A DNA stretch of 64,000 nucleotides from Paraspadella gotoi (Eukaryota; Animalia; Chaetognatha): NCBI GenBank assembly GCA_051294375.1, contig JBJCIZ010000207.1, positions 92,389 through 156,388 on the forward strand, read 5' to 3'. Position numbers and translations under genes: made by a program. This document shows positions 17,804 through 48,975 of the stretch, piece after piece. Below the pieces are notes generated by a model. It saw only the letters and a program-made list of their open reading frames with translations, searched no databases and had not been told where the DNA came from. The number at the start of each line of letters is the position of its first letter. The stretch's first letter is position 1.

Positions 17804-17826
17804 TCCCCCGCTGTTTGAATATAAGG

Positions 17827-21307: not shown

Positions 21308-21342
21308 GAGAGAGCAAAGAATTTGAATTTTAACAACGATTT

Positions 21343-21410
21343 TTATTAATAGTTGGACATGTTTCGGCTTGTTTAGTTCAAGCCTTCATCAGCATATGAC
21401 ATTCAATAAT
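21343..21410 (-). ncRNA. Type I minimal hammerhead ribozyme of the Penelope-like element
   Basis: Minus strand: CTGATGA, stem II GGCTTG/CAAGCC, GAAAC-AT-GTC with palindromic short stem III (ACATGT), and an interrupted stem I. Predicted cleavage between 21356 and 21355. Confidence 0.8.
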
Positions 21411-23832: not shown

Positions 23833-23844
23833 GTTTAACTCCTA

Positions 23845-25210
23845 ATCATTTAGCAATTAGATGTAGATCTAGTGTACCATGTAATCAGTGCAGGGGAAAT
23901 CATCATCCCATGCTGCACGGCGCGGCGCCGGTGCCCCGACAGATCCCGGTTAATCAGGTGGCACAATATCAGCCACAACTGGTTTATGTTCAAACTCCTG
24001 CTCCCGCTCATGCTACACCTACCTTTTTTCAATCCGCTCCCTCCTCCTATGCTGTTTTTTCTCCTCCCCAGCCCCTTCAGAACCCTGGGACGGCAGGGAG
24101 GACTGGCGGATTCAGATCAAACGAGACCAATGACGACGGTTCCCATGCCCCCGGCAGCAGCAGCGACACCAGCAGCGATGCCCACTCCGCAAGCGGGAAC
24201 AATCAACAGTTGACTAGCAGTTGCGTCCGCTCCTGGCAAGGCGACCTTTCGTCCTGTCGTGCCAGTCGTCGTCGAGATGAACGGACGCAAACCCACGACT
24301 TATGCAATGATTGATAGTGGCTGTAATTGCTGCGTATTGAAAGAAAACATTGCCAACGATCTAAGTATAACTTGCAATGATGTAAAAATGAGAATTCGAA
24401 CTTTAGATAGTGATGTTATTGTAGACAAGAAAGTTGCTGATTTTAATATTGAACCACTTAATGGAAATTTTTCTCTATCAGGAAAGCGATTGTGGGATGT
24501 TTACTGACTTTGGAGGACGACCTCCCCCCGTGCGATGAAGATGTGGTCGACAAGCCTCATCTCAAGGGGGTAACGTTCCCCAACCTCCCTGACAAGGAGG
24601 TCGGCGTGCTCCTCCCGGCAAACTACGCCTACACTTGGATTGATGGAGAGGTTCGACGAGGTTCGCGAGACCAGCCGGTAGCCATCAATACGATGTTCGG
24701 CTGGACTTTGATCGGACCCAGAGATGGGAAAAGCGGCGATGACGTGGATTGCGCACGCATGACCGTCAAGTTTGTTGAAGATTTACTAATTGTACATAAA
24801 TATATCGTTGACTTACTCGACGACTTTCATTTAGTACAGTCGATGCAAAAGATGGTGAAAGATTATCGGTTTTGCGACTTCCGTAAAACAAAAAACAGTG
24901 AAATGTTGCGAGTCTCAAACAATAAGCCCAACAACTTTGTCGACAACCGTGGCGCCAACCGACAACAGATCCTTTCTCGAAAACCAAAACCCTTGCTCAG
25001 CTCCTTCCTTCCCCCTCGATGCCGGAGCTCATTCCGGCGGGGGAGAACCATTTTCAGCAAAGACGAGAACCAACCCACGATCTTTGAAAGAGAGGAGGCG
25101 CCCAAGTCCGCGCCCCCGCCGACTTACGGCGAGCCAGACGCGGCCTGGCGCTCGTCAGAAAGAACATTGAAGCTGATTCTGTCGCGACATCGCAGCCAAA
25201 GACCGGAAAT
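23845..25210 (+). pseudogene. BEL/Pao gag C-terminus, aspartic protease and pol remnants
   Basis: CNQCRGNHHPMLH; PVVVEMNG..TYAMIDSG; FGWTLIGP; then an abrupt switch at ~24770 to unrelated 3' sequence. Confidence 0.8.
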
Positions 25211-25801
25211 TGTCCATGGACGCTGTTGTATTATAGACTCATTTTTAAAATTTTATCCATTTGTTTTTATCTATTAGCTTGGAGTATCCTTCTTGAAACG
25301 TTCGATTTTATCATTTAAAGATTAGTTCCCCTTTTTTTATTGTTTGCTCAACTGGTCGTTCTCTACTAAGAAATTTGACGCGTACGCTCAAAAGAAAATT
25401 TTATTTCGACAATCTCGTGACATGGTTAAAATTCATTGTGTAACACATTGCAAAAAAAATAATTTATTTACTTTGATATTGTGACATTCAAACGTTAGAA
25501 AGATTCAATCACATAACTGTAAAAGAAGGTACAGTTTTTTGACAGGCATTGAAAACAATACGGATAAACAATATTTTCTTCCTCTCCCTTTTCTTATTTT
25601 TTTTCAGTTATTTCTACACTTTATTTATTTTTTCTTTCTTATCTTTGTCTTATTTCTCCCTTTCCACCTATCTTGATTCTTCTCTTCCCCTTTCTTGATT
25701 CTTTCTCTTCCTCTTGGGCCATGCTTTACACTGCCCTTCCAGATCAGAGCGGTTTTCGTTGGAGTTTTTCCACCGCTCTGATGGAGCGCTGGAGGTGGGG
25801 G

Positions 25802-26334
25802 TGTAGAGATATGTCCTCCTTTTCCCCCCCCATTTATTTGTTTGCCTTTTGTTATTACCGTTTCTGCCGATAGATGCCTCTTTTCTTTTCTTTACAAGAT
25901 TACACTCCTCTTTTCTTTTCTTACCAGATATACTAGGCCCTATGTAGATACGTCACCAAACTGCCTTTTACGAGGCTCAGGACCTTCATGTCACGTCACG
26001 TTACTCTTTTGATACCGTTTCCAGACAGTCATTGTGGCCATAGACCACGCTTGGGACTTGTGGATGCGCTTGTGGTCGGACTTTCACTCCGTCATAGACT
26101 CGTGGACGGACTTGTGGTCCATACCATTCGACCACACTCGGGTGACGACAGCCTAGCCAATTACTCCACATCACGGTGAGCCGACGTTTCCGGCGCACGC
26201 GCAGCGGCGCCAGACGCGGCCACGCCCACTTCGGGAGGCTTCAGCGAGGTACGTGGAGGACGACGGTCCTCCGTAGCGGCGCGACGGCGGTCAAGCTGAG
26301 GCGGCTACACGGGCACACGGCAAGTGTTCGTACA
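25802..26334 (+). repeat. 3' LTR of BEL/Pao element
   Basis: Preceded by a PPT, ends ...GTACA and is followed by the TSD TAAGG. Confidence 0.95.
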
Positions 26335-26783
26335 TAAGGGTTTAACTGATTAATATTCACAATGATGTTTAAAAATCAATTAATATTAAAATTACTAATA
26401 GGACGGGGTAACGATAATAAAATTCTAAAATAGACCGACTTTTCGTTTCTCTTCGATAATCAAATAATAACCATTGCTTTGTAAAATTACAAATAATTCA
26501 AAATTTCAAAATTGAAAAATATTTACAATAAATACTAATAATAATGGGATATCAGCTGTCAGAACCACCGCCGAGGATGCTGATGGACGAAGATGGATAA
26601 AGATAGGTTCTGGCAGTTGATTAGGTCGAACAGCGGGAATTTTGTTGTTTTTTGTTGTTGTCGTTGTTATCGTTCTTCTTTTTGTCGTTGCAGCATCTTT
26701 CTCAGCACTACAGCGTATGTAGGACGACTGTTGGATTCGTAAGGCTTGTTGGAGATTTTTTTTGTTGTCGGCCTCAAAAATCT

Positions 26784-29700
26784 CTACATTGGCTCAGATC
26801 TTTCATTTTCGAGGTTGTTGTTGTGGATTTCGTCTTCTCCTTTCGTAGATGGAGTCGTCTTGCGTGGAGGGCTGGGAGAATGTGATGCTGGAAGGAAAAA
26901 AAGTAAAGGGGACTGGGGTAGGTCGGGGGAAGGTTGGGAAAGATTTTGGGTAATTTGGGTAATTTGGGTAGGGGTAGGTGAAGGAGGTGGAGGAGAAGGT
27001 GACGTCGCTCTTTGATTATGCGAACGCGTTGTTCTCGTAGTTGTAGCGGGTTGTCTCGTTCTGATTCCGGGTTTTCGACCTGGAGCTCTCCTCTGACGTG
27101 CCTCTGGGGTGCCGACCTCCACATCCTCGTCGCTAACCCATGCTGGTTTGATTCTAGCAATGTTAATCGTTGCGCGACCGACGCTTGGTATTTCCACAGT
27201 CATATTTAATCCATTTTTATGGATTATGCGAAAGGGTCCTTCGTATGGAGGGACGAGAGGGGGTTGGACGCCTGCCCTTCTGACGAAGACATACTTTGCG
27301 GACTCTAGGTTCGCCGGGAGGTGCACTGCCGGCTGTCGGTGGGCTGATGTTTCTGTTGGCTGAAGACTTCTAAACGAAGTTTCAATTACCTTTTTTCTTC
27401 GTTGTCGATTTAATTTGTCGTTGTTCGTCTGAGCGTCACCGAGTATGTCGCCGGGGATGCCGATACCCTCGCCGAATACGAGGTCGGCTGCAGAGGCTCC
27501 AATGTCTTCTTTCACAGTGGTTCTGATCGCTAAAACTTGTCGACGATGGTGAGCAGATGGGAGATGCCGTTGGACTTGGGCATCTTCACCAGGTCGAGGT
27601 TAAGGTGTTGGAATCGGCGAGCTGGTACTTCGAAATTGCCTATTTCGGGAACTGTATGTTTGTTTATTTTTGCTCGTTGACAACTTATACAGTTACGTGC
27701 CCATTGGGAGACGTCTTGCCTCATTCCAGTACACACAAACTTTGCAGCGACTGCCTTTTGAGAAGCATCAACTCCAGGATGTCCTCGTCCATGTATTATG
27801 TCAAATATTTTTCGACGCCAGGCCGTTGGAACAAAAGAACGCGCGGGACCATTCAAAATATCGACGAGTAGTTCATAGTCTCCGACTTTTATTTTTCTGA
27901 AGGAGAGGCCGGAGTGGGCGTCCTCTGCGATCCTCTGAAACTCTGGGTTGAGGGTTTGTTCCTTGGCAAGTTGCTCAATGTCCACTTCGAAGTTTGTTAG
28001 TGACGCTATGACAGCGTTGACGTCTTCAAGTTTATCAGATTTGATTGGTCGATCAAGTTTCTCGCCGCTTGGCGTCGACGTTGACGCTGGTGATAACGCT
28101 GGCTTTGGTGCTGGCACTGACGTTGACGCTGAAATTGACGCTGCGATTGGAGCTTGTTTTTGCGTGATGACAGAGATTGATTCTGCTGTCGATGTTGACG
28201 CTTTAGTCTCCTCTTTTTTGTCGCCTTTTGTAATTGACGTTGTCGACGCGGCGTTAGAACGAGAGAGGGCGTCGGCAACGACATTTGCCTTGCCCTTGAG
28301 ATATCCTACATCCGTTGTAAATTCAGCGATTGCTGATAGTTGGTACGATTGTAGTCTGGGGCTCAGTTTTTTTTCGTATGGCGGAGACTAAACTCTGGTG
28401 GTCCGTGTAAAGGGTGAAGGCGCGGCCTTTGACCCAATGGCGGAAGTGTCTCACTGCCCTAAAGGCGCCGTAAAGCTCTCTATCGAACGGTGGCCAGAGC
28501 TTTTCTTGGCAAGTTTCGCGGAGAAGAAGTCTAGGGGCTCCCAGCCCTTCGGTCCTCGCTGCTCCAGAACGGCGCCGACGGCGTGGTCTGAAGCATCCGT
28601 TGTGATGCACAGTTGTGCTCCAGTACGAGGATGATGGAGAAGGGCTGCGGAGATTAATCTCTCCTTGATGCCTCAAACGCGTTTTCGCAGTCTGTCGTCC
28701 AGTTCAAGGCTTTCGGCTTTCCACTTAGAGCTTCATATAGTGGTGCGCAGCGGTGAGCGACTCTTGGGATGAAACAACGATAGTAGTTAATCATCCCAAG
28801 AAATCGTTGAAGCTCTTTGATCGACGTTGGTCTCGTGGTTTCTTGGAGAGTTTTTACTCTCTGGAAGAGGTCGTACTCCGTTTCGATCGACAAGAAAACC
28901 GAGAAACTCAAGCGAGTCTTGGCCCAGTAGACATTTTTTGGTGTTAACCACCAGTCCGTTCTCGTCGGGAGCCTTGAAGACTCTTTCCAGGTCTTGGAGA
29001 TGTTCCTCGGGCGTTGGCGATGGCATGAGGATGTCGTCCAAGTAGATGAAGGTATGTCTCCTAATATCTCCTAATGTCTCCTAATGTCTCCTAATATGTG
29101 ATCCATCAGCCGCTGAAAGTCCTGTCCGGCGTTTTTAAGGCCGAACGGACAGCGGGGGAACACATAGGCCGAAGGTCGTTATCACGGCCGTCTTCTTTAC
29201 ATCCTCTGGATTCATCGGGATTTGGTGGTAACCTTTGAGCAAGTCTATTTTCGAAAAAATAGTCTTGCCCTCCATTTGCGAATTGAAATCCAAGAGGAGC
29301 TTAACTGGATATCTGTCGTCGATGGTCTGGGCGTTGAGACAGCAATAGTCGCTGCAGCAACGCCACCCTCCATCCGGTTTCGAGACGACGTGGAGCGGGG
29401 ACGACCACTCCGATTTTCCATGCTTCGCGATCCCGAGGGAGACCATTTTCTCCAGTTCTCTTTTGGCCATGGCCAGCTTTTCCGGGTCGAGGCGACGCGC
29501 TAGTGACTGGCACGGGCGCCCTTCCGTCGGTATAGAATGGGTGACGCCGTGGCGTGGCTCCATTTCAAAAGTGGGCGTCGAAAATGAGGGGAAGGACTCC
29601 AATAGCTTATAGTACTTCTCGCCTTTTCTATCTACGAAGTTGACGTGTGCAGCAGTCTCCTTTGAAGTCAACGCCGCGATTGTCGAGTAGTTTCAAAGGT

Positions 29701-30670
29701 CAATGAGAAGTCCATCTCGATGGTTAGGTGCTAAGTAATTCTCTGCTAAAAAATCGGCACTGAGAATATTCTGCTTGACGTCTGCAACGACAAAACTATG
29801 TATTTTCGATTGCCAAGTTGAACTGTTCTTTCCACCGTCCCGTAGCAGTTGATGGACTAGCCGTTGGCTGCCTGAAGTTTTAGCTGCGAATCTGGGCCGC
29901 GGCTGCGCTGCTGCGACGTCGATGGCACAATCAACAAAGCGCCTCCATCGATGAGCCACTTCGTCCGATCCCCGGCGTCCCTGATGAAAATTAGGTCGTT
30001 CGACGCAGGTGAACGTGTTGACTCGTGGGGGACGGCGTTCACCTGCGTCGTCCCCCTTTGGCGTTTCCCTCTTTCCTCTTTTGCATTTTGTCGAAACGGG
30101 CGCATCCCGGCTCGCAGGACCAGGCCTCGCTTCCGAATTTAATGTGCTTAGCACAGAGTAGTGAGTTTGGCCTTGGTTTTTCCTTTGGTCGGGGCGTTAG
30201 GGCGTCATTTGTTGTTTTTTTTCTGAGATCGTCGATAGTAAGAGTTTTCGTTTTTTTGACTAATTGAGCGAGAATTTTTGAATGTTTGGCGCCGTCGATG
30301 TCGAGGTTGTCGAGGAGGGTGGCTGCCTGCTGGCGCCGGGTTAGGCCGTACTCCTTGCGTAGGTAGCGGATAAATTGGTCCCATGCCTCCTCGGTCGCGT
30401 CGCCGAACAGAAATTGATTGATGTTGGGATCAACGTCGATGGCGATCTTCGACGATGTGCAAATTTGTTTTTAGGAGCGGTGACGCCAGCGCGCGTGTAG
30501 GCGGCCTCCACCCTCCTAATCCAGATCTCGATATTGTCCTTGTCGAAGTCGGGTAGGTCCGGCTTTCTATTCGACGCCCGCTCGAGAGCACGCGTGGCGG
30601 CGGCGAGAGCGGCGCGGAGTTCAGCGTTCTCGTCCTGTAAGTCCCTGTCGGTGGCGCCGGCCATTGCCAT
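26784..30670 (-). pseudogene. gag-pol of Gypsy B (frameshifted)
   Basis: gag LPDFDKDNIEIWIRRVEA; protease WLIDGGA; RT FSKIDLLKGYHQIP and YLDD; RNase H FDRELYGAFRAVRHFRH..YTDHQSL; integrase HPG..CISCQRAK, FQHLNLDLV and PPYEGPF. Confidence 0.9.
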
Positions 30671-31029
30671 GGCGGCGTCCTCGAAGTTTCGGAGGTTGGT
30701 AGGTTGATTGGTCGCCGGATAATCGAATGAAGGCGTGGCGTCGGCATATACAGGAGACGTGGAACGGGAGAGTTGACCCCTGCCGAATCCACCCAGAACT
30801 CGCGGCGTCGTCGGCGTCGCGCTGTGCTGAGCGGAGTCTAGAGCGAAGATCTGACCCGCTCATCAAGCTGTCGTTTTCTCCGTCGAGTTGCCGGGGAGAT
30901 ATTGAAAGGGAAAGAGGAATACCGTGAGCGAATTGGGTCTCAGCTTAATTCCAATTACCTCACCCAATCTTACCTCAGAGAAGGTGTTATTTCACTTGTT
31001 CTCCCCTTGTGAAGGCCGATAGAGTTCAT

Positions 31030-31042
31030 CGCGGTCTCACCA
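31030..31042 (-). promoter_or_regulatory. Primer-binding site of Gypsy B (TGGTGAGACCGCG)
   Basis: TGG begins 2 nt after the LTR end ...GCCACA on the minus strand. The cognate tRNA was not identified. Confidence 0.65.
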
Positions 31043-31044
31043 TG

Positions 31045-31319
31045 TGTGGCAAGCTCTCTGAGTCTCACCACAACGTGACGATGGGATCTTGGCAACTGCA
31101 GAGATCATGACTAAGACGTTGGCGTTGAGAATATTGTTTCACTATGTCGACATTGCAGGGAAATATGTTCTCGTTTTAAGTATTGTTTTACTTAAAGTTT
31201 TCACCTCTGACTTTAATGTATTATTTACATTTGTAGATTCAAGTAAAAAGAGAGTGAAATAAAGAATATTACTTTTATTGTGATCGCGTGAAGATTTAAA
31301 AGCCAACTGACTTCAGTCA
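31045..31319 (-). repeat. 5' LTR of Gypsy B (U3 end truncated by ~140 bp)
   Basis: Matches 17390-17660 only; no TSD recoverable. Confidence 0.85.
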
Positions 31320-32513: not shown

Positions 32514-34224
32514 TTAATCTGTTTCAAAGCGAAAAGTCCAGGATAAAAATTCTTACCATGTACATCTCGATCAGTGTCTGTTCCTCCAAGGTTGAAAAAG
32601 ACCCAAACTCATAAACTCATATAACAAAGACTTTGTATTCACTTAAATAAATAAATATTTACCGAGTAATAATCATTTAAAACGTGTGACAGATCAGCCG
32701 GCCAGTCATTGAATTTTTTCATATGCCTCTTTAGTTTTATAACTATACCCATCTTCAGTATTTCTAATCATGTATACACTGTGAAAAAAAACTAAACGCT
32801 CTATAACTCTATAAGTTTAATTTCTCTTTCATATTTTATTGGTTTGAAATTCGAGATGAAAAAGTTTCCTTGGTTTTCACCACAAAATTTTTAGTTGCAC
32901 CGCTAGTACTCATGGAGCAACTCTATAAGTCACTTTTCAGTCGGTCGGTATGTCTGTCCTTAGGTCTGTCCCACTTTAAAAATGCTCATAACTTGCTTAT
33001 AATTAGTTGCTCATTTGTTAAGAAGTAAAAAATCCTTACATTTGAGTGACTGCGAGCGCCACCTTCAGGAAATCCTAAAACTATAAAATAGGTGCGGTCA
33101 TAGAAATTTATTTTGGTATTTTTGCTTCAGAACTCCGGATACTGATAACTTAATGTCTTGTGAATACAACAGGAAAAAGTTTGACCTCCTAGCTTATCAG
33201 GAAAATTAGCCCATTTTTGATTGAAAATAAAGCGGTACAGGGCAAAAATAAAAAAAAATTGCAAATTTAAAAAATTGTTTAAACCAGTATATTATTAGCC
33301 ATTGCCGATGAAATTTAAATGCGTTCAGAGCGTTCAAATATAACAAAATCTAAGATATTAAATTCCATTCCTAATTATTTTACTGTAACAAGGTCTGAAG
33401 AATTCGATGGTGATGACCATTTTTAGTCGGATCTGCTTATCAGCAGATCCCGACTCCTATCACACTCCACCTTTTTTCGGTCCGCGCTCGCGCCTCCAAC
33501 CTATTGCTCCGCACCACTATACATCGCACCCACACATTCTACATATGCATCACTCTCTGCACCAAACAAACACTATCGTCGTCGTCTCCGTCCCGTTCCG
33601 TCGTCGTCCGTCCGTCCGCCCACGCTTGCACACACACAAACCAATACCGTCGCAATTCGGCACGGACGCTCGCGGTCATCGAAATTTCTGCCCTCGCCTG
33701 TGGGTCACGCCCCGCGCCCCCAAAACCTCGCCTCGCTGCAATTCCGCCCCATGGATCAGCACACGCTCTCGCAGGCCAATCGTCGCGCAGTCGAGACAAC
33801 CTTGGTTTAAATCATGAAACAACAAAAACAAATATATCCTTACACTATTTGGAACGCCAATTGCTCATGAGTGGATAGTGCAATTGACTTGAAATTTTGA
33901 GAATGGTAGGAAAGTGTGTGATTGAGCCGGATATAAAGTTTCGAGTGAATCGTGCGAGTGGAAATAGTTAAAATGGAAAACAAAGTAACATTTATTTGAA
34001 GTATTTTACTTAAAACTCATAATTATTTTGTTTATTAAAAATTGATAGATAAATCGAAATGAATTTTGTGTGTGGGTAGGAAAGTATGTGATAAAGCTGG
34101 ATAAAAATTTTTTGATGGAATCGTAGGAGTGGAAAAGAGTTCAAATTAGAAAACCAAAGACACATTATTGAATTTTTTAAAGTCTCTCTCCTCCTCATCT
34201 TGATTGATATGATTGATTGATTGA

Positions 34225-34545
34225 GATTGACCAAATCTCAAATCTAATTGACCAAATTAGCCAGTTGACCAAATTCTGCAAGTTAATCAAGTGTTGCAAT
34301 GACCAAATTATGCTGTTGACCAAATTAGGCTAGTTGATAAAATTATGCCAGTTAACCAAATTTATCGCGCCCCGGGTTTCCGAACCAACCACAAATTACC
34401 TTCTTAACTGATCAACATTATGTCAGTTGACCAACACCAGTCCAGTGACCAACCATTATAGTTCAGTAGACCAAATTATGTCAGTTAACCAAATTAGGTC
34501 TTTGACAAAATTATGCAAGTTGATTAAATTATGCAAGTTGAACGA
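34225..34545. repeat. ~18-bp degenerate tandem array (GTTGACCAAATTATGCCA-like)
   Basis: Repeated TTGACCAAATT units. Confidence 0.8.
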
Positions 34546-35094
34546 TAGCTATTCCCACTTAGTACTGGATTGACCTGGAATTTTGTATGTGAGTAGAAAA
34601 GTGTGTGATTGAACAGGAACCAAGTTTCGATGGAATCTTTGAGTGGAAATGAGTTTAAATGGAAAAAAACAAAAAACCTGTTTCACTAATTGATTATGCT
34701 TCTTTTTCCTTTTATATTAAATGTATATGCAGATGTATTAATAAGTCAAATAATTAATCAGTTAATTAATCAATATTCAATTAATTAATCAATAATTAAT
34801 TAATCAGTCAATCAATCCGTCCATCCGTCCCACTTAGCAAAAAGCTCCAATAACTCGTGATTGGCTGGTTGGATTGAAATGAAAATTTGTGTTGTTAGGA
34901 AGTGTGTGATAAAGCTGGATATAAGTTTCGACGGAATCGTGTGAGTAGAAATGAGTTTAAGTGGAAAAAACATAAGTCGCATTTACTAAAATCTTTTTAC
35001 TTATTTTAACAATAAGTACTCTAATTAATCATAATTGGATGGATAGATTGAGTTCAAATTTTTGTGTGGTAGAAAAATGTGTATCGATGCTTGA

Positions 35095-35157
35095 TATTGG
35101 ATTTGAACCCGAGATGCTCCATCCCTAATCGAGTGGCTCAGCTGATGTCGCCACTAA
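35095..35157 (-). mobile_element. Degenerate tRNA-derived SINE head
   Basis: Minus strand TGGCGACATCAG (A-box-like) and GGTTCAAATCC (B-box) at tRNA-like spacing. Confidence 0.4.
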
Positions 35158-35997
35158 GTAGTTAAGATATTAATTCAGTAATCACCTTTATAACTTACTC
35201 ATGTTAATGTTTTCCCTTTTGTCTTATACAAACAAAAGGACAAACCAATTTTGACTTATCTCAACAAATCTCAGTTGTTTTGCTTTCATCAAGAAATTCT
35301 TCTTGCCTCTCACTCTCAATGAATTAACAACTCTACTATAAGGATCCATTGTTATTATTATTCATTGATCTGTTATTAAATTAATATTTATGATTGCAAT
35401 GCTTTATTTGCTATTAATAACCAAACAAGTGGTACAGTAACTTTTACCTCAGAGCTTAACGAAACTATTACGCGCTCACGAGCGTCAGCGTCAACGCCAT
35501 TCCGTCTCTGAAACATCCTCAAGACGTTCGTCAACTCTCTCTGACATTGGATGACGCCTCCACGGCCAAAGTGATTTCTTAGCGCGTCATCCACATTGGT
35601 GAACCCAACGAAAACTCTTCCAACCTTCAACCGGCCCATCGACAAACTCATAAATGAGCGAATCAAGAGAGACCCGTCAGACCTATCGACTTCGTCAAGA
35701 GACTAACCTCACTGATATAAAGTTTCGGTGAAAACGTACGAGTGAAATGAGTTTAAATGAAAAAATATGAGTCACATTTACTTGAATCTTTTACTTATTT
35801 TAACCCATAATAGATTAGATGAAATTTTGTGAGCGGTAGGAAAGTGTGTGAAAAAGCTAGATATAAAGTTTTGACGGAATTGTGCCAGTGGAAATGAGTT
35901 TAAATGGAAAAACCTAAGTCACATTTACTTGAAGCAGAAAAATGAAACAAGTTAAAAATACCTAAAAGCATAAGGATCGTCGCAATTGCAAAGAGAG

Positions 35998-36062
<65 letters not shown>

Positions 36063-36092
36063 CAGTAAAATGAGCATAAGGACGTCGCAATT

Positions 36093-36137
<45 letters not shown>

Positions 36138-36656
36138 TAGAAAGAGAGAAGTCCGAGATAAAAATTAGCGAATAAAAAAGTTGTTATTTACTCACTGAAA
36201 TAAAATACTTAAAATACTTACAAAATACATAAAATTGATAAATTATTATTCCGATAACATTGTTTAATCACATGCAATATATCTATGTAAGCTAATATCT
36301 AGTAAGGGGGCCAAAATTGAACACTTTTATAACTTCTAGTTCTCTTAAATTTTTTTTTTCCCTTTTACTCTACTAATCGATTTTCAATATAACTTTTTGA
36401 ATTAGTTCATTGGTTGTTGCACTGAAGCTTTTAAATATTTATTAATATATAATAATATATAAAGTATTGACGGAATTGTGCCAGGGGAAATGGGTTTAGA
36501 TGGAAAAAACATAAGTCACATTTACTTGAATCTTTAATATTAATGATTACTAATAAATGTTTTAATTAATTAATGAATTGATTAATTAATTAATGTGAAA
36601 AAATGATGCAAGTTAAAAAAAATCTGAAAAGCATAAAGATCGTCGCAATTGCAGAA

Positions 36657-36695
<39 letters not shown>

Positions 36696-37395
36696 TGAGT
36701 GAGAGAGAGAGAGAGAAGGAGACATAAAATAAAATAGAGGATATTTGTTGGTTTTGATAAAATGTAAACAAAACATATTTAATAACTGTCCTAACCCAAT
36801 TTAAGGACATCGATGATGATAAGTTGAATATAAATTTAAAATTAATTATTACATATTAAAAATAATTAATTAATTAATTAATTAATTAATTAATTAATTA
36901 TCGTAGGCAGATCGACATTGTTTGCTCAAACTTGTTTTTGTATAATTTCATCTTTCTTGTCGGAAATGACGATTTTAATGTATATAAAATGCTAATAAAA
37001 TAGGGAAAACCTTATAAGTTATGATAATCAAATTATTAATTTTTTTTTAAATTTACATGAGCTTTTAAAATATAAAAATTAAGACCTGTAGTCGGGCATT
37101 GCCTAGGTTCACCCCGCCTATAAACATGACACCTTACGGATAGTCATCTTCAGCCCACTTAGCGCCTTATCTACACTGGTGAGCCCATCCTGTTGAGCGT
37201 ATTCCAACCTTCTGATTCCAGGCCCATGGACGTGCTGAAGATTGCTCCCCTCCCTCCACTGGAAGCAGTGCAAGGTGGATTACAATCTGGGGGGCATGTA
37301 GTCGGGCATTGCCTAGGTTTGTAGTTAGGAACTTAGCATTGTAGTCGGGCATTGCCTAGGTTCACCCCGCCTATAAGCATGACTCTTTCAGTTGT

Positions 37396-37468
37396 GACCC
37401 GCTGGCTCATTGAGTAAAGCCATCAGCTCATGACCACTAGGTACTGGGTTCAATCCCAACCCGGAACC
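37396..37468 (+). promoter_or_regulatory. tRNA-derived internal Pol III promoter (A and B boxes) inside the LTR
   Basis: A-box TGGCTCATTGAG starts at position 8 (37403); B-box GGTTCAATCCC at 37447-37457. The acceptor and anticodon stems do not pair, so it is not a functional tRNA. Confidence 0.75.
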
Positions 37469-37474
37469 TACCCT

Positions 37475-37553
37475 GCGGGAAGCGTGAGGACGGCCGTAAG
37501 CCGCCTTGGGGGTGTGGCGAACTCTCAAGCCTGGTTCCAAGCCCAGGACCCGT
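37475..37553 (+). ncRNA. Twister ribozyme, circularly permuted with ends in P5
   Basis: P5 GCGGG/CCCGT; GAGGA (37486-37490); TAA cleavage motif (37497-37499); GC (T2) then C-[TTGGGGGT/ACTCTCAA hairpin]-G; P4 CCTGG/CCAGG closing loop TTCCAAGC. T1 can form as GGA with TCC. P2 has one mismatch and P1 is minimal. Confidence 0.75.
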
Positions 37554-38899
37554 TACATAGCTACTAAAGGGGGTTATAGAAGTTACGGATAGTCATCTTC
37601 AGCCCACTTAGCGCCTTATCTACAGACCTATAAAAATATTTTAGTAAATTTATTTCTCAATTTTAGGTTTTATTAAAAGTTAGTTAGCTATATTTATTAA
37701 TAATTATGAATAAAAATTAGGCTAAAGTTAAAAAATAATAATTTAAAAATTTTTATCCCGGATTCGCATTCCTTGCAAAAAGTTGATATAAGAAAATATA
37801 ATTTTTATTGAAAAATTATGTCATTAAGTTAGTCAAAATTTAGAAAAACTATAATTTTAAGCCAAAAATGGTAAAATTAAATAAATATCATAGTTTTTAA
37901 CATTTTTAACCAACTTAATGAAAGATTTAGTTAAAATGGATTTTACTTTCTTATATCAACTTTTTGCAAGGAATTCAAATCCGGTTATAAAATTTCAAAA
38001 TATTTATTTTTTCACTTTAGCCTATTTTTGATTACTAATTATTAATAAATATAGCTAACAAGCTTTTAATAAAATATAAAATTTGTTAATAAACTTACCA
38101 AAATATTTTTATGTGTTTTTATTTTCATATTATATACACTAAATATGACTTTTATAAAATTTTAATAATTTTAGTTTTTCATACTCTACAATGGTTGCGC
38201 CATTTTAATAGCACCTTATATGCTTCAAAAATCACCATTGGCGACAAGGAAGATGAAACTATACAAACAAGTTTGAGCAAACAATGTCGGATCTGCCTAC
38301 GATAATTAATTAATAGTTTAATTAATTAATTAATAGATTAATTAATTAATTAATTTTAATAATTATTTATAATTTATATTCAGCTTGTCATCATCGATGT
38401 CCTTAAAATTGAGTCAGGACAGTTATTAAATGTTTTGTTTACATTTTATCAAAACAAACAAATATCCTCTATTATCAAGCCGGGCGGGCAAAGCCCGTCC
38501 TGGCTAGATTATGATTCGGTTTAGCTTTCGGTCACGCTTTTTTGCAATCATGGCTTCTGAAAGCGTGATATCATAGGGAGTTGAAATTTCATATATGGCT
38601 TCTAATCATCAAGATCAATATCAAATTCATATCAATATTCGTATTTGTTTGTTTTATTTACAAAACAAAAACGTTTTAATTATATGTCGCTCTCTCTCTC
38701 TCTCTCTTTCTTTTAAATATATGTCGCTCTCTCTCTCTCTTTTTCTCCGTCACTGCTTCTTCTGATTTGTCTAAAAACGAGTTCCGGCTCTGCAGCGTCT
38801 GTCCAGCTTCTTTCTCTCTCTCTCTCTCTTTTTTTTTTTTTTTTACAAAAAATTTTTTAGATATAATGTGGGCTCACTAATGTAAACGATGCCACGAAC

Positions 38900-38960
38900 A
38901 GTGTGCGAACCCGGGTCCTTTGGGTAAAGAAGAGCTCACGCTACGTCTGGCGCCATAGGT
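38900..38960 (-). mobile_element. Degenerate tRNA-derived SINE head
   Basis: Minus strand TGGCGCCAGACG (A-box) ... GGGTTCGCA (B-box-like). Confidence 0.45.
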
Positions 38961-39023
38961 ACTGCTGATTCTTTAATTATTATATATCGCTCTTTCTTTC
39001 TCTCTTTTTCTCTGCAGTGGCTG

Positions 39024-39054
<31 letters not shown>

Positions 39055-39603
39055 GTGTGTCTGTCCCTCTCTGTCCGATCTCTTGCGTTATCGTTTGTTT
39101 TTTGAAAAATTCTGATTATTTTTTTCCTTCTAAAAACTTTTTATTATTGCATTTATTCCCGCGTTTTTTTCAATACAAAATCCCATATTTTCATCCGAGA
39201 TTTTCGTGGATTTATTCTCTTTCTTTCTCTCTCTCTCTTTTCTTCTCTCTCTCTCTCTCTTTTCTCTCTCTCTCTCTCTTTCACTCATACACGCATTTGA
39301 TTGTTTTATTGATATCATCGCATCACATGAATGACAATCATCGCATCAGTGAATGACTATCATCAGAAGCAGTGAATGACTATCATCGCATCAATAATTG
39401 ATTATCATCGAATCAAAAAATCAATTCTATTACATCAATAAATTACTATTACATCAATCAATTAGTATTACCTCAATCAATTACTATTACATCAATAATC
39501 GTATACGCATGATTCATTCGTTTTTTTCCCGGGTTTTTCATTAATTTTCTTTGATAGTGGGCTCTGGCCGATCTTGAGTCTTTTAAGATTTTTTTATTTT
39601 ATG

Positions 39604-39643
<40 letters not shown>

Positions 39644-40481
39644 ACTCTCTCTCTTTCTCTCTCACTCTCTCTCTTTCTCTCCACTCTCTCTTTTTCTCTC
39701 TCTCTCTCTCTCTCATCTTTTTATGCAATACGACGATCCTTATGCTTTTAAGATTTTTTTTTAACTTGCATCATTTTTTCAACTTGCATAATTTTTCAAC
39801 TTGCATTCCGTCAAACTTTATTCTAGCTTCTTCACTCACTTTCCTACCGGCTCACAAAATTTCATCTCAATCTATCATGGGTTAAAATAAATAAAAGATT
39901 CAAGTAAATGTGACTCATATTATTTTCATTTAAACTCATTTCCACTGGTACGTTTCCACTGAAACTTTATATCAAGCTTCGTCACACATTTTCCTACCCA
40001 CACACAAATATTCAACTCAATCTATCCATCCAATTATGATTAATTAGAGTATTTATTGGTTAAAATAAGTAAAAAGATTTTAGTTAATTCGACTTATGTT
40101 TTTTTCATTTAACTAATTTCCACTCACACGATTCCATCGAAACTTTATATCCAGCTTTTATCACACACTTTCCTACCCACACACAAAATTTAATTTCAAT
40201 CCAACCAGTCAATCATGAGTTATTGGAGCTTTTTGCTAAGATGGACGGATGGACGATTGATTGACTAATTAATTAATTATTGATTAATTTATTTACTAAT
40301 TGATTAATAACTGATTAATTATTTAATTTATTAATACATCCTGCATATACATTTAATATAAAAGAAAAAGAAGCATAATCAATTAGTAAAACAGCGTTTT
40401 TGTTTTTTTCCATTTAAACTCATTTCCACTCAAACTATTCCATCGAAACTTGATTCCTGTTCAATCACACACTTTACCTAC

Positions 40482-41908
40482 AGTGGAGTTTCCTGATTAT
40501 TATTTAGTAAGAAAGTAAATAAAATCGCCGGCCGAATTCTTAAAAAATTCCAATGCCCGCTAAGAAATATTGCTCCCTCTGTTCAAACGCCGGTCGCAAA
40601 ACGTTACCTTATTTGGAAGTATTTTTAGAATTGTTTACTTTACAAATGTTAAACCAAATTTTCTCTCTCTCGCCGTATAAAAATGAATGCACTTTGTACA
40701 ATTAGCCATTCGATTCCATCGCTTTTCTGATTTTCAATAAATCGATTCATCTCATTTTGTTCGCCATTTTTATATCACACCATCACCATGATGCAGCGGT
40801 GGTCACCAATGGTGGGATTACACCTCCAAAGAAGATGCGTTTGAGAATGGCAAAAGATGAATATTTTGGCAGTGGGACTTTTTGAAGAAATGAGAAAACG
40901 TCATCGCAAAACGACATAAAAAACGGGTTGTTTTTTTTTTTTTTGTGTGTCACTGAGTGGATATGCGAAATTTGGAACTAACGTTTCCCTGCTCGTTAAA
41001 GTCTCTGCCAACTTGAAAACGACATCAAATTTTTGCGATGAAAGTTCGTCATCTATGGGCACGTCAGCGTCCGTTCTATGAGCAAGTTTTAGACGCCAAA
41101 AATGCCATGTGGATCGGCGATGGAGATGGGAGATGTTTAGACAGTGGATCATGTTTGCGTTTACGGCAACATGCACCAGTAGTCACTTGTACTGTACTGG
41201 AGAAATAGCCCTGGTTATGCCTCCTACGCCACCGAGGATCTGCGTCACGATGCTACGTCATCACTCTTTTCAAAGTCTAAATGTGTGCTCATCGTTTTGT
41301 GCTGTTCACTGTGTTCATGTGTGCTATCAACTTCATCACAAACTGGATGTCTTTCGTGATTCATAAATCAGAACTTCGTTAATTTGAATTTTCATGTGTG
41401 ATTTACCAACGCTACCGTATATTTTGCCTAAATTATTATTAAATTCATTTTGGTATTTTCGCATTATTTAGCTTTAACTGGCCAAAAAGAAGTTACTGTG
41501 ATTGTACTTTTATTTTATAAATTGCCGTTTTTTAATTTAATTTTATTTGCTTTAATTTGATAACTCATTTATTTGCTTTTCTTTGGTCGCGTGGCCGAGT
41601 GGAGTTCCTGATTATTATTATTAGTAAGAAAAGTAAATAAAATCGCCGGCGAAATTCTTTAAAATATCCAATGCCCACTAAGAAATATTTTGCTCCTCTG
41701 TTTCAAACGCCGGTCGCAAAACGTTACCTTATTTGGAAGTATTTTAGAATTGTGACTTTACAAATGTAAACCAAATTTTCTCTCTCTCGCCGTATAAAAA
41801 TGAATGCCACTTTGTACAATTAGCCAATTCGATTCCATTCGCTTTTCTGATTTCAATAAATCGATTCATCTCATTTTGTTCGCCATTTTTATCTCGACCA
41901 CCTCCACT
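40482..41908. mobile_element. 1.4-kb element with ~300-bp terminal direct repeats and AGT...ACT termini
   Basis: TSD CTAC at 40478-40481 and 41909-41912; termini AGTGGAG / CTCCACT; direct repeats ~40482-40785 and 41598-41908. It interrupts a host repeat that is contiguous in the copy at ~34570-34610. Confidence 0.75.
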
Positions 41909-42702
41909 CTACCCACATACAAAATTCCAGTCATCACCCATCCACTCATGAGCAATTGTGTTCAAATAGTGAATATATTTTTTTTTGTTTTTCCATTTAA
42001 ACTCATTTCCACTCGGCACGATTTCCATCGAAACTTCATATCCTGCTAATCACACACTTACCTATCACACAAAAATTTCATTTAAATCCATTCATCCAAC
42101 ACGAGTATTGGTGTTTTCTGCAAAGGTGGAGGCACGGACAGACAGACGGACAGACGGACATAATTTTTTTTCATAATTTATCATAATTCGATGTTCTGAC
42201 ATGATATAAGTTAGTGCCGACAATATTGAAGGGGGCGGACCGACGGACTGGACAAAGTGAATTATAGAGTCGGAATCTGCTGATAAGCAGATCCGACTAA
42301 AAAATGGTTATCATCGAATTCTTCAGACCTATTACATTAAAACAATAATGAATGAAATTTAAATATCTTAAATTATCTTTGAAACGCTCTAGTATACAGC
42401 CTAAGTTGTAGTTTATTCAAATAGCGATGTCGCCGGCGATTCACGCACGAGTCGCAGGTGTGGTACTTATTGGTTGGCGACTTCGCCATGGCAATATCGC
42501 CAGGGCTTTGGCGATGTCGCCAGTCCCCCACTGGCGACCTCGCCAGTGATAAAAGTAGCAATATAATGAAAAGCGCAGCTAACATGGGGATGAGCATCAC
42601 CTACAGGCTCCTCTCCCAACCCTAACCAAACCTCCGTTCAACTCTGTGCCTCTCCCACCCTAACTCGACTGGGCCTCCCTACATCTCCATGCCTCAACCC
42701 TA

Positions 42703-44610
42703 GACACATTTTTTTCCGCAACAAATGGTCATAGAAACTTCGGAAAACCACCATTCGATTCGAAATAAATTCTCTTTCTAAAATAATTCGCTTGACCCAG
42801 GCGAGTTGAAAGCAACTAGGTAACATACATCCAAATTGGAACTCTTTTCTCAGTTACAATATTTATTATTTTTCGATATAATTTAGTTAATTATTAAATT
42901 TCTGTGACTGATAGATAGTTATTCTTTGTTTAATTATTAAGAATAATCTTTTTTTACAGACAGTCCATTAATCCATGAACACTCGTTCTGCTACAGGGCC
43001 GAGTCTCTCTGTTTCCTGAATTGGTATTTGCAAGCGCTTAGCGAACTTTCGACCACCGCCGGCAGAACCACCAAAAGGGGCAGCAGTATGGAACGGTTCT
43101 TGACATTTTTTACACTCAGCCAAAAACACGAGATAAAAATAGACTGCTTATGTCGTAGCTCTAGAAATTAATTAACCTTTGTAAACTGGGTGACGCGCGA
43201 TCCTTTGCTCTACCTGAAAACAATTCGGAAGAACTAAGGAAGAACTAAGGAAAAAGATTACAATATCATATTTTAGTAGAATATGAGTAGAGTCAAATTA
43301 GATAAATAATTATGCACAAAATGCTTTGTAGTTGCAGATTTATTTAGATTTTAGAATAAATTATCATTATATTGCCAAAAGCACACTCATAATAAAATTA
43401 ATATGAAGTCAGTTGATCTCGTCTCTTTTTCTTCGGCAAGAAGCTCAACTTCACATGACAAAAAAGGCTAAGCTACGATACATCACGCTCGTTGGATGGG
43501 TAGTGCCTCTACATTCTCAAAATGCTGATTGTTGGTGATTCTTTCGTTTTGTAGTCACCAGCAGAAACATGGATGTCTTGGTGATGTCTTATTACATCTT
43601 GTACATTCAATTTTTATTAACTGGTTCTGCTGTCCATTCATGGCGGATGCTCCATTCCTTACTCTCTCCCTCATGAAGATCTAATGGCGTGGAGCGATCA
43701 AGGGATCGCGATGGGGCCCATGCTGGACTAAGAAAGATTGATTTACATTACCGAATATCTTTCTGGCCACTCGGTTATTCTCCACTCTGGCTTCAAAAAA
43801 TTCTCAAACTCAACTAGAAAACAGCAAAACAGCAAATTAGAAGATTACGTTTCGGCTGATTCATGGTTATTTTTTCAGGTTCATTTGCAATATTTTATCA
43901 ATAATTTTTATATTAATTATATCTAATTTCCAATGACTATTATAATTTATTACACAGCTTTGTCACTTTGAGCCATCTTTTTTGTCGAAACTGTGGAAGA
44001 TGTAATGATAAACGCCAACTACCACTCATGTCTGACAAGCTTGTGAAATGGATTTTCCCCACTCAATGATGCTGCGGGAGAGGTGTTTAAATTTGCAAGT
44101 GATTACAATGGTTCAATAACCCGTACATAAAATGCACATGAAGCAATGCTTCAGGGGTTGAAGAACATCGTCGATCTCACCTAAGCCAAACAAAGTGTCT
44201 TATGAACTTAAGTTTAAGATCAGTTAACAATAACAACGCAGAATTGTTTGCCCTCTTGCCCGTCACTTTCATGAGAGAAATAAATTGGTTTAAAAATATT
44301 AAAATTACACTTCCGGTATATTTTGCGTTCAATACTTTTTTATTAATTTTTAATAATTACAACTACATCGGAGTTTTACATTCATTTCAATCCATAATGA
44401 TTAAAAACATCACATAAGATCCCTTCAACCGTTTCAAAATATACGTAAATCAATGAATCTGACGCATGTGGAACTCGACGCCGCTGGGTCAAGCGAAATC
44501 TTTAAATAAGTTAATCATATAGCACATCATTTGAAAGAGAATTTTATTTTCGAATCGAGAATGGTAGTTTCCGAGTTTCTATGACCATTTGTTGCGGAAA
44601 AAAATGTGTC
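42703..44610 (+). mobile_element. 1.9-kb TA-flanked TIR DNA transposon, copy 1 (no intact transposase seen)
   Basis: TIRs GACACATTTTTTTCCGCAACAAATGGTCATAGAAAC.../...GTTTCTATGACCATTTGTTGCGGAAAAAAATGTGTC, flanked by TA on both sides. Confidence 0.8.
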
Positions 44611-46315
44611 TAGTACTTACCTAAAACTAAGAGGATAAGTTACCTATGATTCGTGAGTCGGTAACATTTAAATGATATTTTGTAAGTTTATAATTAGTTT
44701 TAATTTACTATTTTTAATAATTTTCTCTCTTGTTATATTTAGAAAATAGTCTCCCTTCTACTGCTTCACGTCTCACGCTCATGTTTATGTCTACTACAAT
44801 ATATATTACTAATTTATATACTTCGAATTTCTATAATGAAAAGCAAGTCAGAATACACTAGTAGGGGACCAACTAAGATTTGACTATTAGCAATGTTTCT
44901 TTAGTTGTCTTGACTAAATATTTAAGCAATCATTTTCAAAAAAAATTTATATTATACGTCTTTTGATTAATACATAAATGTTACTTATCTTTTTTCACAT
45001 ATAAAAAAATATTTTTTGAAATCTTAAAATTTTTTGATGAATTTTGAAAGAGCATAAAAAGTTAATACAAGAAATAATAATTACTGATTTTAAAAATTCT
45101 AACGTTTGTAAAGTGAAAATATAAAAAAACTGATAAAATCATCGAAAGATAATTATGATGACAATTTTTTTACAGTTTCTTTTTTTTGACTCCCTTATAA
45201 AAAATAATTATAAAAAATCTTAAAAGCATAGGATCGTCGCAATCGCATAAGAAAAATCTGGATTGACGACAAATTTTGGATACTAAATAAAATAAAATTG
45301 GAGAAAAAAAAAATAAGTTATAAACAGAAAGAAAAATTCTATTTTGCGATTGTAATTAAAAAGAAAGAATTAAAGTACCGAAAAAAATTAAAGTTACAGT
45401 TTCTGAAAAAAAAAAATACATTGTCAAAAAATAAACTGATCAGCAGACGCCAGTCCTGAGAAAAACGAAAATAAAAATATGAAAAATGCGATGCTAATTA
45501 CGAGTTCAATCCTAATTTTTTTAAATAAAAAAAGCAGAGAGAGAAAAAGAAGAGCCCTGCAGAAGCCAGCTGCAGACTCAGAGGCAGCAGAAGAAGCAGC
45601 AGAAAAAAAGAGAGAAAAAGAAAAAGCCCCTGCAGAAGCCAGCTGCAGATTTATTTTATTTTATTTTATTTTCCCGATGAATCAGACTGGGAAAAGAGAG
45701 AGCTACATATATTTAAAATAAAAAGAGAGAGAGAAGGAAACAAAAATAAAAGAGAAATTGTTTGTTTTTTATAAAACGTAAACAAAACATATTTAATAAC
45801 TGTCCAGACTCAATTTTAAGCACACGATGATGAGAGATGTATATAAATTTTCAGCTTCATACATTCAAATTTAATGATAAAAAGGCAATCTATAATTTGG
45901 AACGCGACAACGACGACGACGCCACTGATTTTCATTAATATCATAATTACTATTATATTAATATTTATTTGAATAAATTTTTATTAATTTTTTTAATAAT
46001 AATATTATTATTATATTGACTAAATTATATTTTGTTTATTAACTTATTTAATAATAATTTTTTTTTTATTTGGCTTACCTTTACCTATCTCATATTAAAC
46101 ATGGCCGAATCAGCCTGTTTTACTTAAATTTAAAGTTTTATTAAAACAACCTTTATAATACTTAGTAATAGAATGTTAATAAGTAATAACATATGAGATA
46201 TAACAAAATAAATTTTTATTTTTTGATAAAAATTTTTTTTAAAATTAATTCTTGAAAATTAAAAATATTATTAAAAAATATAATCTAAATTCAGGTAAAA
46301 AAGAAATATATATTA

Positions 46316-48225
46316 GACACATTTTTTTCCGCAACAAAATGGTCATGAGAACTTCGGAAAACCACCATTCGATTCGATAATAAATTCTCTTTCGATGATG
46401 TGCTAATGATTAACTTATTTAAAGATTCGCTTGAACCCAGCGGCATACGAAGTTCCACATGCGTTCAGATTCATTGATTTACGTATATTTTGAAACGAAG
46501 GGATCTTATGTGATGTTTTTAATCATTATGGATTGAAATGAATGTAATTTTAATATTTTTAAACCAATTTATCTCTCTCATGAAAGTGACGGAAGAGGCA
46601 AACAATTCTTGCGTTGTTATTGTTAACTGAATCTTTTAAAACTTGAAGTTCATAAGACACTTTGTTTGGCTACGGGTGAGATCGACGATGTTCTTCAACA
46701 CCTGAAGCATTGCTTCATGTTGCATTTTATTACGGGTTATTGAACCATTGTAATACACTTTGCAAATTTAACCACCCTTCCGCGCATCATTGAGTGGCGA
46801 AAATCCATTTACAAGCTTGCAGAATGAGTGGTAGTTGGCGTTATCATTACATTCTTCCACAGTTTCGACAAAAAAGATGGCTCAAAGTGACAAACCTGAT
46901 GTAATAAATTATAATGTCATTGAAATTAGATATAAATTAATCATAAAAATTATTGATAAAATATTGCAAATGGACCCTGAAAAAATAACCATGAATCAGC
47001 CGAAACGTAATCTTCTAATTGCTGGTTTTTCATATACGCATGGTATTTCCGGCTTTCCCATTTCTACTATGGACCTTTTCAGAGCTCAAGAGGGCTTCAC
47101 CATCGACATTCTAGTTGAGTTTGAGACTTTTTTGAAGCCAAAGCGAGAATACCGAGTGGCCAGAAAGATTGGTATGTAAATCATTCTTAGTCCAGCATGG
47201 GCCCCATCGCGATCCCTTGATCGCACGCATTAGATCTTCATGAAGGGAGAGAGTAAGGAATGGAGCATCCGCCATGAATGGGACAGCAGAACCGAGTAAT
47301 AAATTGAATGTACAAGATGTAATAAGACATCACCAAGAATCCATTTTCTGCTGGTGACTCAAAACGAAAGAATCACCAACGATCAGCGTTTTGAGAATGT
47401 AGATGCAGCTACTCCATCAACGAGCGTGAATGTATCGTGCTTAGCTTTTTGTCATAGAAGTTGAGCTTCTTTGCCAAGAAAAAGAGATGAGAATCAATGA
47501 TTCAATATTAATTTTATTATGAGTGCTTTTGGCAATATAAATGAATAATTGATTTTAAAATCTAAATAATCTGCAAACTACAAAGCATTTTGTGCATAAT
47601 TATTTATCTAATTTTACTATACTCATATTCCACTAAAAATATGACATTGTAATCTTTTTCCTTAGTTCTTCGAATTGTTTTCAGGTGAAGCAAAGGGATT
47701 CGCGCGTCCACCCAGTTTCCAAAGGTTAATTAATTCTAGAGCTACGACATAAGCAGTCTCATTTTTATCCTTTGGTTTTTTGGGCTGAGTGTAAAAAATT
47801 CAAAGAACCGTTCCAATACTGCTGCCCCTTTTGGTGGTTCTGCCGGCGGTGGTCGAAAGTTTGCTAAGCGCTTGCAAATTACCAAATTCGGGAAACAGAG
47901 GAAACTCGGTCCCTGTAGCAGAACGAGTGTTCATGATTAATGACTGTCTGTAAAAAAAGATTATTCTTATAAATTAAAACAAAGAATAACTATCTCAGTC
48001 ACAGAATTTAATAATTAACTAAATTATATCAAAAAAATAATAATATTGTAACTGAGAAAGAGTTCCAATTTGGATGTTGTTACCTAGTTGCTTTCAACTC
48101 CGCCTGGGTCAAGCGAAATATTTTTTTAGAAATTAATTAAATTATATACCAACAAAGAGAATTTTTTTCGAATCGAATGTGGTTTTCGAAGTTCTATGAC
48201 CATTTGTTTGCGGAAAAAATGTGTC
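46316..48225 (-). mobile_element. 1.9-kb TIR DNA transposon, copy 2 (inverted relative to copy 1)
   Basis: Full-length reverse complement of 42703-44610, with small indels and an extra ~80 bp at ~47030-47110. Confidence 0.8.
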
Positions 48226-48227
48226 CT

Positions 48228-48975
48228 ACTAAACCCTTAAACCCTAACCGCCTTTGTTTCATCAACCACGGGCCTCCCCCAACGCCAACCCTAACCAAGC
48301 CTTCTGTTCTACTCTGTGCCTCTCCCCTAACCCTAACCCAGGCCCGGCCTCCCATACATTTCCGTGCCTCAACGCCTAACCTAACCGCCTTCGATGCATC
48401 AACCATGGGTCCCTCCCCAACCCTAACCTAAACCAAGCCTCCCAGTTCTATCCATGCCTCTTCCCCTAACCTAACCCTAGGCCGGCCTCCGTACATCTCC
48501 GTACCTCAACCCTAATCCTAACCGCTTTGAGCATCACCAGGGTCCCTCCCCCAACCCTAACCCTAAACCAAGCCTCCGTTCAACTCCATGCCTCTACCCT
48601 AACCTAACCAGGCCCGGCCTCCCCGTACATCTCCGTACCTAAACCCTAACCCTAATCGCCTTGATATATAAACCCACGGGCCTCTCTCCCAACCCTAACC
48701 CTAACCGGGCCAGGCCTCCCGTACATCTCCGTGCCTCAACCCTAATCCCTAATGTCCCTCGCAGTACCTTCCTAAGCCTAACCTAACGCGGGCCTCTTGG
48801 TCATCAACAACACCCTCCCTACCCCTATCCCTAAAATTGACATTAATATAAGCCTAAATAAACTTAACTCAACCCTAACCCTAAACTACTCAACCCTAAC
48901 CTAACTACTCAAAACCCTAACCCTAACTACTACCAACTCAACCCTAACCCTAAACCAACTCAACCCTAACCCTAA
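48228..48975. repeat. Degenerate telomere-like (CCCTAA)n-containing satellite
   Basis: AACCCTAACCCTAA interleaved with higher-order spacer units such as CCGTACATCTCCGTACCTC. Confidence 0.85.

Follow-up and report, generated by a model that had tools for sequence, protein, structure and literature searches.

Helenus (TRIMp3) elements are non-coding TRIMs of less than 1 kb, and animal members are defined by a tRNA-like LTR with A and B boxes, a PBS, a PPT and a 4-bp TSD (Kojima 2024, PMC10886601). Pol III transcription of Helenus itself is an unvalidated proposal of the same paper. LTR retrozymes are described as hammerhead carriers found mainly in plants, and the retrozymes of animals as non-LTR arrays (preprint 10.64898/2026.07.22.740005). 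The plant LTR retrozymes are non-coding, with one ribozyme in each LTR, a 4-bp TSD and a unit RNA lying between the two cuts, and both cleavage and circles have been demonstrated for them (Cervera et al. 2016, PMC4918200). They have a type III hammerhead, a tRNA-Met PBS and units of 600-1000 nt, and share only PBS, PPT and LTR-end boxes with Gypsy elements (PMC4918200). No tRNA-like head has been described in them, and the term 'polymerase III' is absent from that paper.

Here we describe an element which, judged by its sequence features, is a Helenus member carrying a non-canonical twister-like fold. As in the plant LTR retrozymes, it is non-autonomous and has a PBS, a PPT, a 4-bp TSD and boxes shared with Gypsy, and it is likely to work like an LTR retrozyme. 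Since it has no hammerhead, it is not an LTR retrozyme as presently defined and, in contrast to the plant elements, it is known from DNA alone. Neither a twister in an LTR element nor a ribozyme in Helenus was found in full-text searches of openly searchable papers; the sequence-only reading of this DNA, which knew of no such combination, is in line with this result.

The element occupies positions 37087-37624 of the window (the whole 64-kb stretch of DNA that was analyzed), and all of its features described below are on the plus strand. It is an LTR-type, non-coding element of 538 nt, compared with about 691 nt expected for a form with two full LTRs, and no reading frame of at least 120 aa overlaps it. 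The element forms a GC-rich island within an AT-rich foldback repeat, the arms of which continue across it (36733-37085 versus 38115-38473; also 37630-38112). The surrounding region (33850-48750) contains dense AT-rich foldback nests, (GA)n and (TTAA)n tracts and long imperfect palindromes.

The GACC TSD, the TGTAG...CTACA LTRs, the TGG PBS-like site and the G-rich PPT of the sequence-only reading were all found in place. The two GACC copies lie at 37083-37086 and 37625-37628, and the empty form is present in contigs that skip exactly 542 nt (538 nt plus one GACC; one contig in each of two of the four runs), indicating that the duplication is a true TSD. Its length is that of animal Helenus, as seen at this single locus. 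The 5' LTR (37087-37175) is only 89 nt long and consists of the first 49 nt (94% identity) and the last 42 nt (100%) of the long LTR. It is without the 196 nt equivalent to 37389-37584, which hold the tRNA-like head and the ribozyme, and the deletion is joined at a 2-nt microhomology (TT overlap). The twister-like fold in the LTR, as proposed earlier, is a feature of the family, but this copy retains it in the 3' LTR only. With the ribozyme gone from its 5' LTR, the copy would be unable to yield a monomer running from LTR to LTR.

The non-coding internal region (37176-37296, 121 nt, in agreement with the order seen in contigs) starts with a tRNA-Trp-like PBS at 37177-37187, which matches the bee tRNA-Trp end of Kojima's Fig. 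S2 at 9 of 10 positions. It ends with the PPT (37289-37296), six G followed by CA, directly before TGTAG. Between the PPT and the 3' LTR, the copy has two extra LTR-start fragments (37297-37339, 43 nt), one of 23 nt that is exact and one of 20 nt that is divergent, giving TGTAG starts at 37087, 37297, 37320 and 37340 and CTACA ends at 37175 and 37624. These fragments are rare in the family, with a summed contig depth over 37316-37337 that is a small fraction of that in neighboring bins, and they are likely to represent restarts during reverse transcription. The second abortive copy derives from a divergent LTR. The 5' and 3' LTRs also differ at sites that are polymorphic in the family, which together with the abortive LTR starts suggests that the copy is a template-switch chimera.

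The 3' LTR (37340-37624) is full-length, with 285 nt, and contigs with unrelated flanks end at both of its borders. It contains a tRNA-like head at 37396-37469, with an A box at 37403-37414, a B box at 37447-37456 and a putative start at 37396. A TATA-like element of presumed function lies about 24 nt upstream of this start (37372-37376) and is changed in approximately 14% of the contig depth. The earlier annotation had missed the head, and with it the placement of the element in Helenus/TRIMp3. The head matches the Helenus box A TRGCY and box B GGTTC, and is a likely Pol III promoter. Most Helenus have YGG in box A, whereas the present element and, by eye, the Helenus families of Synergus wasps are without it. 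ARAGORN called no tRNA in the head. At positions 37445 and 37465 most copies of the family differ from the copy in the window, and with their letters the B box is enclosed by a stem of 9 bp without mismatch. There is no run of four T on the transcribed strand of the element, and a Pol III transcript started in the 5' LTR would thus read through both ribozymes. A minus-strand Rfam match to Plastid-ycf2 (E 0.49) was set aside as the reverse of the tRNA-like head. With a tRNA-like head directly upstream of the ribozyme, two LTRs, a PBS, a PPT, no coding capacity and a length below about 1 kb, the element belongs, by the features compared, to the Helenus-type TRIMs (TRIMp3) of Kojima 2024.

The nearest Helenus families are Helenus-2_SyJa and Helenus-2_SyUm of Synergus wasps, which share with the element a tRNA-Trp PBS, the CTACA LTR end and an LTR that continues over a long stretch 3' of the head. 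They were the only animal families with a tRNA-Trp PBS noticed in the Kojima consensus file. Inspection of their LTRs by eye (supplement DataS1) revealed a complete type III hammerhead just 3' of the head, with both core motifs and helices I, II and III of 7, 4 and 6 bp; its loops I and II are complementary over 12 bases. In the corresponding slot of 37340-37624, the element has a P5-type twister-like fold. That Trp-primed Helenus LTRs hold ribozymes of two classes in this one slot suggests that the slot has a function; the Synergus families, being closely related, amount to a single case. Elsewhere in the Kojima file, the hammerhead core motif occurs three times, each time in a fungal sequence and, in the passages shown, outside a hammerhead context. 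The two twister loop motifs gave no match in the Kojima supplement, in a search that matches spanning line breaks can escape. The text of PMC10886601, with the word ribozyme in its reference list only, and the supplement do not mention a ribozyme in Helenus, and the Synergus hammerhead is unremarked there.

The putative P5-type twister-like ribozyme (37475-37553) was examined with Rfam, with a descriptor and through pairings read from the sequence. Both the pairings and the descriptor confirm the permuted, P5-type order of the core elements proposed earlier. P5 has five pairs (37475-37479/37549-37553) and is followed by GAGGA (37486-37490), the palindromic P1 CGGCCG (37491-37496), TAA (37497-37499), GC (37503-37504), P3 with eight pairs (37505-37529) and P4 with five pairs (37530-37547). 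The proposed T1 pseudoknot between GGA of L1 and TCC of L4 was corroborated (G-C, G-C and A-U pairs), with the A-U pair standing where the Rfam twister consensus has G-C, and T2 forms two G-C pairs (GC/GC). All core bases (G37486, A37487, A37498, A37499, U37535 and A37539-37540) are present. Compared to twister type P5 (RF02684; PMC5408937), the element order, the core bases, the conserved L1 and L4 nucleotides, T1, T2, P3, P4 and the terminal P5 are the same. From the twister consensus (PMC5408937, PMC8501958), the cut is predicted between 37497 and 37498, with G37486 as the catalytic G.

The agreement with twister type P5 does not extend to P2 and P1. P2 has three pairs and a bulged 37483 rather than the four pairs of this type, and P1 is palindromic and loopless. 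A P2 with more or fewer pairs may disturb the active site of twister (PMC5408937). Other twisters can do without P1 (PMC5408937), so that a monomer of the fold may suffice. The short P2 together with the loopless P1 places the predicted activity of the fold in some doubt. Weak P1 helices are also tolerated in the twister T-variants of Perere-3, where the ribozyme likewise serves a retroelement; Perere-3 is a non-LTR element, and its ribozyme has both termini in P1 and occupies the 5' end (PMC8501958).

In the Rfam check suggested by the sequence-only reading, Twister-P5 was the sole plus-strand match in 37050-37660, but its score of 16.8 bits (E 0.6 over 4227 families) is far below the gathering score of RF02684 (37.6). 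No family reached the gathering level anywhere in the 64-kb window, and Rfam gave no hammerhead match at 37050-37660 or, at gathering level, in the window. A structure-aware P5-twister descriptor, which was written after the site had been seen and tolerates the P2 bulge, matched a single site on both strands of the whole window, namely 37475-37553. When the element was shuffled with its dinucleotides kept, the same descriptor had no match in 128,150 shuffles, and in 1,108 shuffles of the window it had 2. The fold lies far beyond chance. Searches with a degenerate ribozyme pattern in metagenome, viral and prokaryote collections, and with an LTR-end pattern in metagenomes, produced no matches.

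The folding energy of the isolated motif is unremarkable (z 0.20). Its lowest nested fold is a blocking hairpin, in which the P1 segment pairs with the P2 strand across the cut site, with -31.9 kcal/mol; the nested helices of the twister fold reach -19.6 kcal/mol, the pseudoknots being unscored. P3 and P4 form in folds of longer transcripts, with a pairing probability of 0.0 for P2 and P5. On its own the P1 palindrome can form one pair with a 4-nt loop, whereas between two copies it forms six pairs, and the duplex of two palindromes has -10.7 kcal/mol.

Sequence of the element was found in nine public runs from three studies of one organism, six of which were analyzed. None of the nine is catalogued as RNA, but run X9 may be. 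The whole element was compared with contigs from four runs (7,796, 6,995, 2,132 and 570 contigs). The contigs matching best may be the window's own source and hence not independent of the window, and contig depth was used as shares only, never as copy number. The comparison showed that the element in the window is a damaged copy of a high-copy family. Unrelated AT-rich flanks (agreement about 0.4) pile up before 37339/37340 in 145, 127 and 61 contigs of runs X1, X2 and X5 (one contig shown from run X9 has its loose end at 37337), and unrelated flanks follow 37624 in 67, 60, 27 and 15 contigs of four runs, indicating that the normal LTR has 285 nt. In eight of 32 displayed pieces (of about 17,900), the LTR start runs into the ribozyme. 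Each of these differs by 16-50 letters, and the pieces therefore come from other loci. Two displayed pieces have the order LTR end, PBS, internal region, PPT, LTR start; they start at the edge of the deletion and have 49 and 523 additional letters upstream of it. In three of the four runs, one contig each joins position 37525 in the ribozyme to 37186 in the internal region, and the comparison over 37500-37528 revealed, in one of four runs, one contig that carries the ribozyme twice in the same orientation. Loose ends at 37360 and 37466 point to at least one more subfamily, in which another LTR start and another B-box region are combined with the same ribozyme.

Variants with a share of at least 5% within 37475-37553 numbered ten, among 40 of the 50 variant rows, and all ten keep the fold. 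Five are in the P3 loop (37513, 37514, 37518, 37519 and 37521), two at the P2 bulge (37483), and three swap one pair for another (37476, 37500 and 37523). A random change was compatible with the fold in 46-53% of trials, corresponding to a chance of 0.0004-0.002 for all ten and of 0.004-0.012 for the seven polymorphic variants that are not private to the copy in the window. At 1% resolution over 37500-37528, changes that break a stem or T2 stayed at or below about 1.5% in three DNA runs, and several loop changes reached 2-32%. On covariation, a check that the sequence-only reading had proposed, this support is one-sided: the listed variants keep the fold, and none of the variants examined showed, in an intact copy, compensating changes on both sides of a pair. 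A TGGCCA form of P1 was rejected as proof of covariation, since it stands in a copy without P3 and the changes are of CpG type. The low variation partly reflects the recency of a young family.

A broken Gypsy element is present on the minus strand of the window (17389-31319), with LTRs at about 31044-31319 and 17389-17805 and Pfam matches to RT, RNase H and integrase-zinc. From its motifs, we take this relic to be probably of CsRn1 type. The Gypsy dependence proposed earlier is in line with PBS, PPT and LTR-end boxes common to relic and element: in both, a G-run PPT is followed by TGTAG and the LTR end by TGGTGA and a purine (TGGTGAG in the relic). Protein searches with window frames retrieved Gypsy-type relatives and Ty3 only. 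Nested in the relic is another LTR element (17825-26334; LTRs 17825-18373 and 25800-26334), the frames of which are presumably BEL/Pao-like, and which itself contains a Penelope-like fragment (22353-23845). Together, the frames that we tentatively assign by their motifs to BEL/Pao, Penelope-like and CsRn1-type elements presumably indicate an animal-type repeat neighborhood; Pfam found the relevant family in none of seven such frames. In a further LTR element (3250-13385), about 2.6 kb of internal sequence is duplicated in tandem (7396-9989 versus 10015-12599), and a PBS of TGGTGAC type lies near 3465.

Closer to the element, the LTR end, PBS and leader of the TRIM have a counterpart in a fragment at 35578-35650 (score 56; the best of 410 control tiles scored 31). 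It is part of a 615-nt insert in another foldback copy (35098-35712), where the LTR end, Trp-like PBS and TRIM-related leader are followed by a possible reading-frame start, and this insert is perhaps a fragment of the helper or of a sister family. The insert also includes an A/B tRNA-like stretch on the minus strand (35099-35169). As a relative of the head this stretch was rejected, its score of 27 being reached by 30 of 414 control tiles. A tRNA-Trp PBS and a 4-bp TSD are characteristic of the CsRn1 lineage of Gypsy (PMC3630058), and the helper of the element is likely to be a Gypsy of this type.

The DNA anatomy, the TSD, the head and ribozyme as a family feature, the absence of a T4 run and the boxes shared with Gypsy are directly established. 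Our preferred reading, to which we give a probability of roughly 55%, is that the family represents a Pol III-driven animal LTR retrozyme, whose unit would be cut out by the twister, circularized and copied by a CsRn1-type Gypsy. Promoter activity, cleavage, ligation, circles and the identity of the helper are what we infer, in a scheme modelled on the plant retrozymes (PMC4918200). Pol III would initiate at the tRNA-like head in the 5' LTR, and cleavage by the ribozymes of both LTRs would release a unit of about 406 nt (285 + 121) with 5'-OH and cyclic-phosphate ends, in agreement with the monomer of roughly 400-450 nt estimated earlier. A host tRNA-type ligase would close the unit into a circle, on which tRNA-Trp would prime reverse transcription by CsRn1-type Gypsy enzymes, and integration would yield the 4-bp TSDs.

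Within the retrozyme reading, we see about even odds for a sub-model in which the P1 palindromes of two ribozyme copies pair, producing a strand-swapped double twister. This pairing would also break the blocking hairpin, and cutting would be favored in RNAs with both LTRs, comparable to the dimeric hammerheads of axolotl. In the axolotl non-LTR retrozymes, a hammerhead helix that is too short is rescued by pairing between two copies, which is the kind of rescue that may apply here; those elements carry hammerheads in tandem arrays and are without LTR, PBS and PPT (PMC7229834).

The retrozyme reading has to be weighed against two alternatives, both of which we regard as unlikely. According to the first, the ribozyme is a passenger relic. 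A ribozyme-bearing tRNA SINE would have entered the LTR of a TRIM ancestor in a single capture event, a doubtful history. SINE capture has been proposed as the origin of Helenus (Kojima, PMC10886601), and SINEs combining Pol III and a hammerhead, which are non-LTR elements, exist in schistosomes (PMC6765202). The head would then be the promoter and the twister inactive or irrelevant, with ordinary Helenus mobility by the LTR route, which we likewise consider improbable. The 3-bp P2, the blocked monomer fold, the low Rfam score and the youth of the family are in line with a relic, as is the lack of such a 3' extension, by eye, in most animal Helenus of the published consensus sequences shown. 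Against it, the listed variants avoid stems and core and all catalytic bases are retained, and the intact-looking hammerhead in the same slot of a Trp-PBS Helenus suggests a functional slot.

The second alternative accepts an active cutter but dispenses with the circle, so that uncut read-through RNA would be the transposition template. This, too, appears rather unlikely, although the uncut transcript already carries the terminal repeats for strand transfer, which makes a circle unnecessary and counts against the retrozyme reading. Cutting might then end or trim Pol III transcripts, take off the roughly 102 nt of the tRNA-like head or eliminate RNAs made from solo LTRs, roles that are not readily favored either. 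The element is without a T4 run and many published Helenus LTRs, by eye in the sequences shown, have a T-run behind the B box, which would fit such a role, and contigs often show LTR ends that border on unrelated sequence, at the one end or the other. However, a cut in the 5' LTR loses nothing needed only if it is joined to the cut in the 3' LTR, and plant LTR retrozymes of the same layout give circles (PMC4918200).

Finally, a one-off SINE-like insertion into the 3' LTR, which the sequence-only reading would have taken as refuting its proposal and which would make the 89-nt LTR the normal form, agrees with a 5' LTR lacking exactly head and ribozyme but is effectively ruled out by the many independent loci that join LTR start, head and ribozyme and identify the 89-nt LTR as derived, by a missing piece that starts 7 nt before the tRNA-like start with a 2-nt microhomology and no tail, and by contig pieces that start at the edge of the deletion and carry a different sequence in front of it.

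Beyond this locus, the retrozyme reading can be extended to a tentative and rather doubtful conjecture, that animals hold unrecognized LTR retrozymes in the form of Trp-primed Pol III Helenus with an exchangeable ribozyme slot, in which the twister would cut only as an inter-LTR double, so that only full-length transcripts would circularize. A twister with a short P2 and a palindromic P1 would broaden the known structural range of this ribozyme and explain why Rfam misses such motifs. If the retrozyme reading is true, the twister would gain a second natural role, and the route of self-cutting and circularization would be independent of the ribozyme class and extend to LTR elements of animals. 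TRIMp3 and the retrozymes, now separate groups, would then become joined.
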